DNA from: Escherichia phage ECO103 4-12-1
Reading direction: 5' to 3' (one strand)
DNA length: 64,000 bases
Sequence record: OR844650
Part shown: positions 21,464 to 21,721 of the stretch, piece by piece
Numbering within the stretch: the stretch's first letter is position 1
Layout: each line of letters begins with the position of its first letter
Notes under the pieces: model-generated
The model's database searches: none
Told to the model about the DNA's origin: nothing
What the model saw: only the letters and a program-made list of their open reading frames with translations
Program-made: the position numbers and the translations under genes

Positions 21464-21721
21464 TTATCTCATAGATCTATGCCAACAATTACGCGGATCT
21501 CTTTTAAAAGTACTATCATGATCCTCCTGGCAAGTTATGCAGTACTTACATCCCTTAACAGCCTGGCGGCGATTCTCAGGGATTTTATCGCCACAGTCGA
21601 GGCAATGTATCAGTGATTCTATTTGTGCGTTAATTTGCTTTCTAGCGTGGTTTACGGCGGCCTGAATCACTGCGTTAATCTCGTCTTGTTCGGCCCCGTC
21701 TTTCGCGAATCCGACAGCCAT
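21464..21721 (-). CDS. DksA/TraR-family C4 zinc-finger protein
   Basis: 'CLDCGDKIPENRRQAVKGCKYCITCQE' matches the CxxC..IPxxRR..CxxC TraR/DksA signature. Confidence 0.6.
   Translation of the reverse strand: MAVGFAKDGAEQDEINAVIQAAVNHARKQINAQIESLIHCLDCGDKIPENRRQAVKGCKYCITCQEDHDSTFKRDPRNCWHRSMR

Follow-up and report, generated by a model that had tools for sequence, protein, structure and literature searches.

A TraR-sized, YbiI-like C4 zinc-finger protein of an Escherichia jumbo phage is a candidate modulator of host RNA polymerase

The stretch of Escherichia phage ECO103 4-12-1 analysed here (64,000 nucleotides of sequence record OR844650; hereafter the window) carries a small minus-strand gene at 21464..21721, recognised in the ORF list and by Pfam, PHROG and dN/dS analyses. 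The ORF comprises 85 codons, starts with ATG and ends in a TAA stop (21464-21466, included in these coordinates), and its product is MAVGFAKDGAEQDEINAVIQAAVNHARKQINAQIESLIHCLDCGDKIPENRRQAVKGCKYCITCQEDHDSTFKRDPRNCWHRSMR. A Shine-Dalgarno-like AAAGG, read from the sequence, is located 8 nt 5' of the ATG (21730..21734, minus strand). An Asteriusvirus jumbo coliphage is the source of the window: identity of the region to such phages, among them WPEC3, CMSTMSU, G17 and Sharanji, is 92-96%, and the protein itself is 100% identical to gp513c of phAPEC6, where it is annotated as 'hypothetical'; several other relatives label the ortholog as 'TraR/DksA C4-type zinc finger protein' or 'DksA-like zinc-finger protein'. 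Relative to phAPEC6, the gene exhibits three synonymous and no non-synonymous differences (dN/dS of 0, Nei-Gojobori), while the same method returns values of 0.11 against vB_Ec-M-J and 0.19 against fENko-Kae01. The gene is under purifying selection, and these ratios, together with conservation across genera, rule out a non-functional remnant. It is also the only ORF in the window with an in-frame C4 TraR-type motif, no second TraR-like gene being found in frame. Just 3' of the gene, in the intergenic region around 21430, a 418-bp segment is missing by comparison with phAPEC6 and most Asteriusviruses (L001, 6291-6708); the segment contains the 357-nt GNAT/PaiA-type acetyltransferase gene usually found immediately after the zinc-finger gene.

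An earlier note on this DNA had placed the product in the TraR/DksA zinc-finger family and had named the absence of a family match as grounds for abandoning this assignment. The Pfam search returned a match to PF01258 (zf-dskA_traR) over residues 39-68, with an E-value of 1.1e-11 and a score of 45 bits, well above the gathering cutoff of 24.9, and the family assignment therefore holds. The peptide quoted in that note corresponds letter for letter to residues 40-66, and the four-cysteine signature with IPxxRR that it described is present as C40, C43, C61 and C64 with IPENRR at residues 47-52. The protein also matches PHROG 54, 'DksA-like zinc-finger protein' (E=3.8e-19), and a separate match to PHROG 25948 covers residues 60-85. 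The scores against the more narrowly defined NCBIfam models fall below their cutoffs: 82.2 bits against 96 for the YbiI equivalog NF008243 (PRK11019), with the match limited to residues 1-73; 52.8 against 59.7 for TIGR02419 (C4_traR_proteo, the phage/conjugal plasmid TraR subfamily); and 16.2 against 105 for the DksA model NF033459. The best PDB sequence matches are to E. coli YbiI (2KGO, E=2.7e-12, residues 1-69), followed by TraR (5W1S and 6N57, E~8e-6). By these comparisons, the protein is TraR-sized and YbiI is its nearest relative. The label 'DksA' is misleading, since the protein is TraR-like in size and possesses neither the coiled coil nor the region of the ppGpp site.

Homologs of the zinc-finger protein were found in 673 phage records, and those at 65-75% identity come from further jumbo phages and from a large number of T4-like phages. 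The wider family amounts to 2574 cluster representatives at E<=1e-3 in a full-library profile search, which was used, in addition to an alignment of 58 close homologs, to define the clade. As delimited in this manner, the YbiI-like clade is composed of bacterial YbiI and a phage branch in jumbo and T4-like phages, and its hallmarks are an N-terminus of the form MAxG[FW]AKDGA[EV]Q, a C4 finger with an invariant I-P-E-x-R-R, and a basic C-terminal tail. The zinc-finger protein is a member of a common and already annotated phage gene type, and the novel angle is limited to the distinct and strongly conserved tip and tail of the clade.

The C4 zinc finger, CLDC-N17-CITC, occupies codons 40-64 (21530..21604, minus strand) and is defined by the Pfam match, the alignments and hhalign. 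Among the 58 homologs, no substitution is seen at C40, C43, I47, R51, R52, G57, C61, C64 or Q65, and at least 90% of the sequences retain P48 and E49. An hhalign comparison with a TraR family alignment paired residues 19-73 with TraR 16-70 (probability 99.3%, E=4e-20), the TraR profile being a narrow one because the TraR search gave only close TraR orthologs. In this register, R27 is paired with TraR R24, G57 with G54, Q65 with Q62, and D69 with E66, while the segment I47-P48-E49-N50-R51-R52 (21566-21583, minus strand) has as its counterparts I44, P45, E46, A47, R48 and R49 of TraR; apart from N50/A47, the pairs named here are invariant or nearly so in both families. Published work on TraR assigns binding to RNA polymerase (RNAP) through the rim helices to P45 and R48, and the contact with beta'Si3 to E46 and R49 (PMC9239242, PMC6970531). 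In the alignments, the globular-domain residues that serve TraR at the beta' rim helices and beta'Si3 are thus all conserved.

Conservation of these residues is one of the features by which TraR-like RNAP regulators may be recognised following Gopalkrishnan et al. 2022 (PMC9239242), the others being a length close to that of TraR, with one N-terminal helix ahead of a globular zinc domain and a C-terminal helix, contact of that last helix with betaSi1, a DxxDxA motif at the N-terminal tip and, in function, RNAP binding in competition with DksA, ppGpp-independent inhibition of rrnB P1 and complementation of a dksA deletion. The predicted structure of the 85-aa protein exhibits the length and the helix arrangement. 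The AlphaFold2 model (mean pLDDT of 74) contains helices at residues 8-31, 49-54 and 62-71, the first of which (codons 8-31; 21629..21700, minus strand; pLDDT ~80) is the presumptive counterpart of the TraR helix that enters the secondary channel. Foldseek superimposed the model on RNAP-bound TraR (6N57_M) with a TM-score of 0.65 normalised to TraR and an rmsd of 3.2 A over 67 columns, and also matched it to YbiI (E=4.8e-5). The predicted helix at residues 62-71 aligns to TraR 59-68, the helix that contacts betaSi1, and Q65 and D69 within it are conserved. A proline comes next, and then a tail of 14 residues modelled with low confidence.

The N-terminal tip, MAVGFAKDGAEQ (codons 1-12; 21686..21721, minus strand), departs from TraR. 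It is nearly invariant in the YbiI-like clade, with M1, A2 and G4 invariant and K7, D8, G9, A10 and Q12 conserved in at least 90% of sequences (alignments A1/A2), and the motif reappears in distant representatives retrieved by the profile search. The motif DxxDxA, which makes TraR, DksA and lambda Orf73 active (PMC9239242), is not present in full: the stretch at this place reads G4-F5-A6-K7-D8-G9-A10, in which D8-G-A10 is the sole remnant and the aromatic F5 stands at the position of the first aspartate. The register in this region is ambiguous by one residue. hhalign leaves residues 1-18 unaligned to TraR, while a MAFFT L-INS-i alignment with all experimentally tested homologs, whose sequences were translated from the gene-block table of PMC9239242, sets TraR D3 and D6 opposite A6 and G9. 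This register is one residue off, and a one-residue shift brings D8-G-A10 into correspondence with TraR D6-x-A8. The distance from the aspartate of DxA to the first cysteine is 32 residues here, 31 in YbiI and 28-31 in the active homologs, and from these comparisons the correspondence of D8-G-A10 with TraR D6-x-A8 is plausible but unproven. The N-terminus is, in addition, 2-3 residues longer than that of TraR. Since S2 of TraR sits 4.3 A from the catalytic Mg, so that its tip is already at the active site, these extra residues would need to be accommodated differently.

The second distinctive element is the basic tail FKRDPRNCWHRSMR (codons 72-85; 21467..21508, minus strand), which the alignments identify as specific to the phage branch (consensus FKRxPRNCWHRSMR) and which is modelled with a pLDDT of 51-66. 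Bacterial members and some phage members, such as that of Proteus phage Privateer, end instead in [YF]NRRGSKDSQLR. TraR is without a counterpart of this conserved tail, the C-terminus of the zinc-finger protein being nine residues longer. A 54-aa ORF of PHROG 25948 in Mosigviruses (gp103 of vB_EcoM-RPN187, L002, 1417-1581; also in JN02) retains only the last 26 residues, YCVGCQSMHDEIFKREPRNCWHRSMR, encompassing the second CxxC and the tail, fused to an N-terminus with no relation to the protein; either recombination left this ORF as a remnant, or it is a derivative reduced to the tail.

These features may be set against those of characterised systems. With YbiI, the protein shares the N-terminal motif MAxG[FW]AxD.A..[EQ]I, a spacing of 31-32 residues to the first cysteine, and the C4 and IPxARR core; the two differ in the tail, which is GYNRRGSKDSQLR in YbiI and FKRxPRNCWHRSMR in the phage protein, and in genetic setting, YbiI being encoded at a sigma-S/Fur-regulated chromosomal locus and the phage protein in an early region. 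TraR of the F plasmid (5W1S, 6N57) is similar in size and three-part architecture, but the identity is only 26% and FAKDGA takes the place of its DxxDxA (D3, D6 and A8). DksA belongs to the same Pfam zinc-finger family, and its tip, D74-R-A76-A-Q-E-E, resembles the D-G-A-E-Q-D-E of the phage protein. However, the latter lacks the two-helix coiled coil, the N-terminal region and the ppGpp site-2 residues, and has 39 residues before the finger (with one 24-residue helix) where DksA has 113, and it does not qualify as a DksA proper.

A further comparison is with five phage TraR homologs that have been examined experimentally, namely Orf73 of lambda, Orf82 of P2, Orf61 of VP882, Orf8 of VHML and Gp34 of X. 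bovienii, each of which proved able to bind RNAP, to inhibit rrnB P1 and to complement a deletion of dksA (PMC9239242). They resemble the present protein in being small, phage-encoded C4 proteins with IPxxRR, and in lambda the gene is likewise early (exo-xis region). They differ from it in their origin, having been drawn from temperate phages or prophages, whereas the zinc-finger protein belongs to a virulent jumbo myovirus, with homologs in T4-like phages. In the MAFFT alignment, neither the MAVGF tip nor the RNCWHRSMR tail was present in any of the five. The importance of the tip is evident from lambda Orf73, in which D3N or D6N largely abolishes inhibition, yet the partial DxxDxA motifs of Gp34 and Orf82 remained active in vitro (PMC9239242). 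RNAP binding by Gp34, whose KxxDxA lacks the first aspartate, equalled that of TraR, and its IC50 for inhibition of rrnB P1 was 415 nM; for VHML Orf8, with a four-residue N-terminal extension, the IC50 was 800 nM (PMC9239242). The loss of the first aspartate and the longer tip of the zinc-finger protein are the same two deviations as those of these active homologs. The same study cautions that possession of a C4 finger is by itself no guarantee of DksA/TraR activity (PMC9239242). The suggestion of the earlier note that the protein modulates RNAP through its secondary channel is reasonable in view of these active homologs, the fold and the globular contact residues, but is tempered by this caution, by the place of the protein in the uncharacterised YbiI-like clade and by the incomplete DxxDxA motif at the tip.

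The zinc-finger gene is part of a run of small minus-strand ORFs that extends over approximately 39 kb. Directly upstream is a 65-aa ORF of PHROG 36844 (ORF65; 21721..21918, minus strand), whose TAA overlaps the zinc-finger ATG (TAATG), and because of this overlap the two genes are probably co-transcribed and translationally coupled. The upstream neighbour is mobD.3 in dhaeg, gp539 (137 aa) in EJP2 and gp007 (195 aa) in fENko-Kae01, while in vB_Ec-M-J a 329-nt gap is found; as the neighbour is different in every relative examined, there is no conserved partner gene. All ten flanking ORFs fall into PHROGs without a function and have no Pfam match, and the neighbours consequently gave no indication of function. 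Elsewhere in the window, self-BLASTP (E<=1e-5) revealed 19 paralogous ORFs of ~70 aa lined up in tandem at 7148-12905 (minus strand), and 14 paralogous ORFs of ~245-440 aa are arrayed in tandem at 39426-57211, where the window has its single extended plus-strand block. Small tandem paralog families are also present on the minus strand at 37352-38496 and 34550-36317 (six ORFs of ~60 aa, and families of four and three of ~60-77 aa).

The nearest strong promoter upstream of the zinc-finger gene is TTGACA-N16-TATAAT at 22212..22239 (minus strand), which matches the sigma-70 consensus at 12 of 12 positions. It is followed, in the direction of transcription, by a 47-aa ORF (22024-22167), a weak hairpin, ORF65 and the zinc-finger gene. 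The hairpin (AGCCCAC/GTGGGCT; 21992-22017, minus strand), located between the 47-aa ORF and ORF65, has a 7-bp GC-rich stem and a 12-nt loop and is followed by TTTAATTCATT (TTTAATT). It was not called in the terminator scan and might serve the presumed operon as a weak terminator or for RNA processing; as it lies between promoter and gene, transcription presumably reads through it. Ten perfect TTGACA-N16/17-TATAAT sites are present in the window, all on the minus strand, against a chance expectation of 0.19. Most of them belong to a repeated early-promoter cassette, GTAyTTGACAA-N9-AGTACTGTATAAT-AGTTTACAT; next come a GGGGAGAA..TTCTCCCC hairpin, conserved in the 5'-UTR as GGGGAGAAnnGTTCTCCCC, and then a Shine-Dalgarno sequence. 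Examples of the cassette, all on the minus strand, are found at 30465-30438, 28891-28864, 28106-28079, 24739-24712, 24413-24386, 22823-22796, 22239-22212, 21184-21157, 20234-20207, 19894-19867, 19624-19597, 19194-19166, 16774-16747, 16280-16253 and 14756-14729. The conserved AGTACTG in the spacer, like the UTR hairpin, hints at a further level of recognition or at stabilisation of the RNA. The 8 nt past the -10 element average 26% GC. Promoters of rRNA genes have GC-rich discriminators, which make them sensitive to DksA and TraR, and the AT-rich discriminators of the phage are in this respect their opposite.

In two relatives, the ortholog is located within the annotated direct terminal repeats of 19.7-21.5 kb (vB_Ec-M-J, L009, 12349-12606; fENko-Kae01, L007, 4429-4689), 4-12 kb from the genome end. 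This location implies two copies of the ortholog per packaged genome, near the end of the DNA. The paper describing Sharanji places the genus among the jumbo phages with their own sigma factor that use the host RNAP, and the related phage PA5oct, which has no RNAP of its own, is blocked by rifampicin. Phages of this group have no RNAP of their own; the host RNAP is therefore the enzyme that the zinc-finger protein would meet, and it is also the enzyme on which phage transcription depends.

Taking these observations together, we lean, with some reserve, towards the view that the zinc-finger protein is an early, ppGpp-independent binder of the secondary channel of the TraR type, damping fragile host promoters and sparing the consensus promoters of the phage. 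RNAP binding, the direction of the promoter effect and the benefit to the phage are all points that we infer from homology. In this model, the protein, with its long N-terminal helix, C4 zinc globular domain, and short C-terminal helix and tail, would be produced at an early stage of infection by a jumbo coliphage reliant on the host RNAP. [quoted passage not shown] The effect, in the manner of TraR and lambda Orf73 and without ppGpp, would be to destabilise open complexes at host promoters that are kinetically fragile, such as those for rRNA and ribosomal proteins, while the early promoters of the phage, with their consensus hexamers and AT-rich discriminators, would be unaffected, and resources would be redirected to the phage.

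It is unlikely, in our estimation, that the protein has a target other than RNAP and performs a different zinc-finger role, as YbiI may do, for instance in metal or stress regulation or in binding another host protein or a nucleic acid, for which it might use its conserved tail. The functional literature that we found for YbiI comprises only a data-not-shown statement that its overexpression rescues dksA auxotrophy (PMC2613031) and a report that the gene is sigma-S-dependent; the authors of the former favoured a role in iron metabolism. The absence of an established function for YbiI, this iron-metabolism suggestion, and its place in the sigma-S regulon and the Fur-regulated fiu-ybiX-ybiI cluster would all accommodate such a role, as would the sub-cutoff score against the TraR subfamily model and the conserved C-terminal tail, which is missing from all RNAP-validated homologs. 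It has also been found that some C4 homologs of intermediate length are not DksA-like in action, although those cited as non-functional are longer and lack the C-terminal helix and the tip features. In favour of RNAP as the target, the rim-helix and Si3 residues of TraR are invariant or nearly so here, and the fold matches that of RNAP-bound TraR; moreover, no ybiX- or fiu-like genes were observed nearby, the ten neighbours examined all belonging to PHROGs of unknown function.

A binder of the secondary channel with an outcome other than that of TraR, owing to the divergent, extended tip (MAVGF before the helix) and the basic tail, appears quite unlikely. Such a protein might act as a plug or competitor that excludes host DksA, GreA and GreB, for example rendering RNAP deaf to the stringent response, or it might inhibit or alter catalysis in a more general way. 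This possibility is raised by the retention of the globular contacts without DxxDxA. The tip aspartates of DksA are required for function and not for binding, and Rnk provides a precedent for a channel binder that acts by competition only. The N-terminus also extends 2-3 residues beyond that of TraR, whose tip already touches the active-site region, and the near-invariance of MAxG[FW]AKDGAxQ in phage and bacteria implies a specific contact of its own. However, Gp34, without D3, and VHML Orf8, with its extension, still inhibit rrnB P1, and the reported rescue of dksA auxotrophy by YbiI requires a positive activity of the TraR/DksA kind. A general catalytic block would furthermore be harmful to a phage that needs active host RNAP.

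A broader version of this idea, that the YbiI-like clade as a whole constitutes a mechanistically distinct class of secondary-channel effector, with a tip placed deeper than that of TraR, a tail that makes an extra contact and an outcome unlike that of TraR or DksA, is speculative and rather doubtful. In such a class, the invariant, non-helical MAxG[FW]AKDGA tip may reach further into the active centre, the tail (NRRGSKDSQLR or RNCWHRSMR) may contact the beta lobe/Si1, nucleic acid or another partner, and the outcome may be, for example, a channel block or modulation of catalysis as opposed to promoter-selective destabilisation of open complexes.

Finally, it is highly improbable that the protein acts only in complex with the product of the upstream 65-aa ORF, as the TAATG overlap and the example of TraR_VP882, which forms a complex with the product of the co-transcribed upstream gene (QisA), the pair strongly arresting growth, might suggest, since TraR_VP882 retains activity alone; as a general feature, a conserved partner gene on the QisA-TraR_VP882 analogy was rejected on the strength of the variable upstream neighbour.

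As a genome annotation, the result is routine, PHROG 54 being large and several relatives already being annotated in this way. If the TraR-type reading is correct, however, a virulent jumbo phage that relies on host RNAP alone would carry a ppGpp-independent mimic of the stringent response in its earliest-expressed region (within the terminal repeat in close relatives), lowering ribosome synthesis while the phage promoters continue to fire. The paradigm of lambda Orf73, which comes from temperate phages, would then apply to lytic jumbo and T4-like phages as well. The zinc-finger protein is, in addition, a candidate small RNAP-binding growth inhibitor of modest practical value, and it offers an approach to the function of YbiI in E. 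coli.
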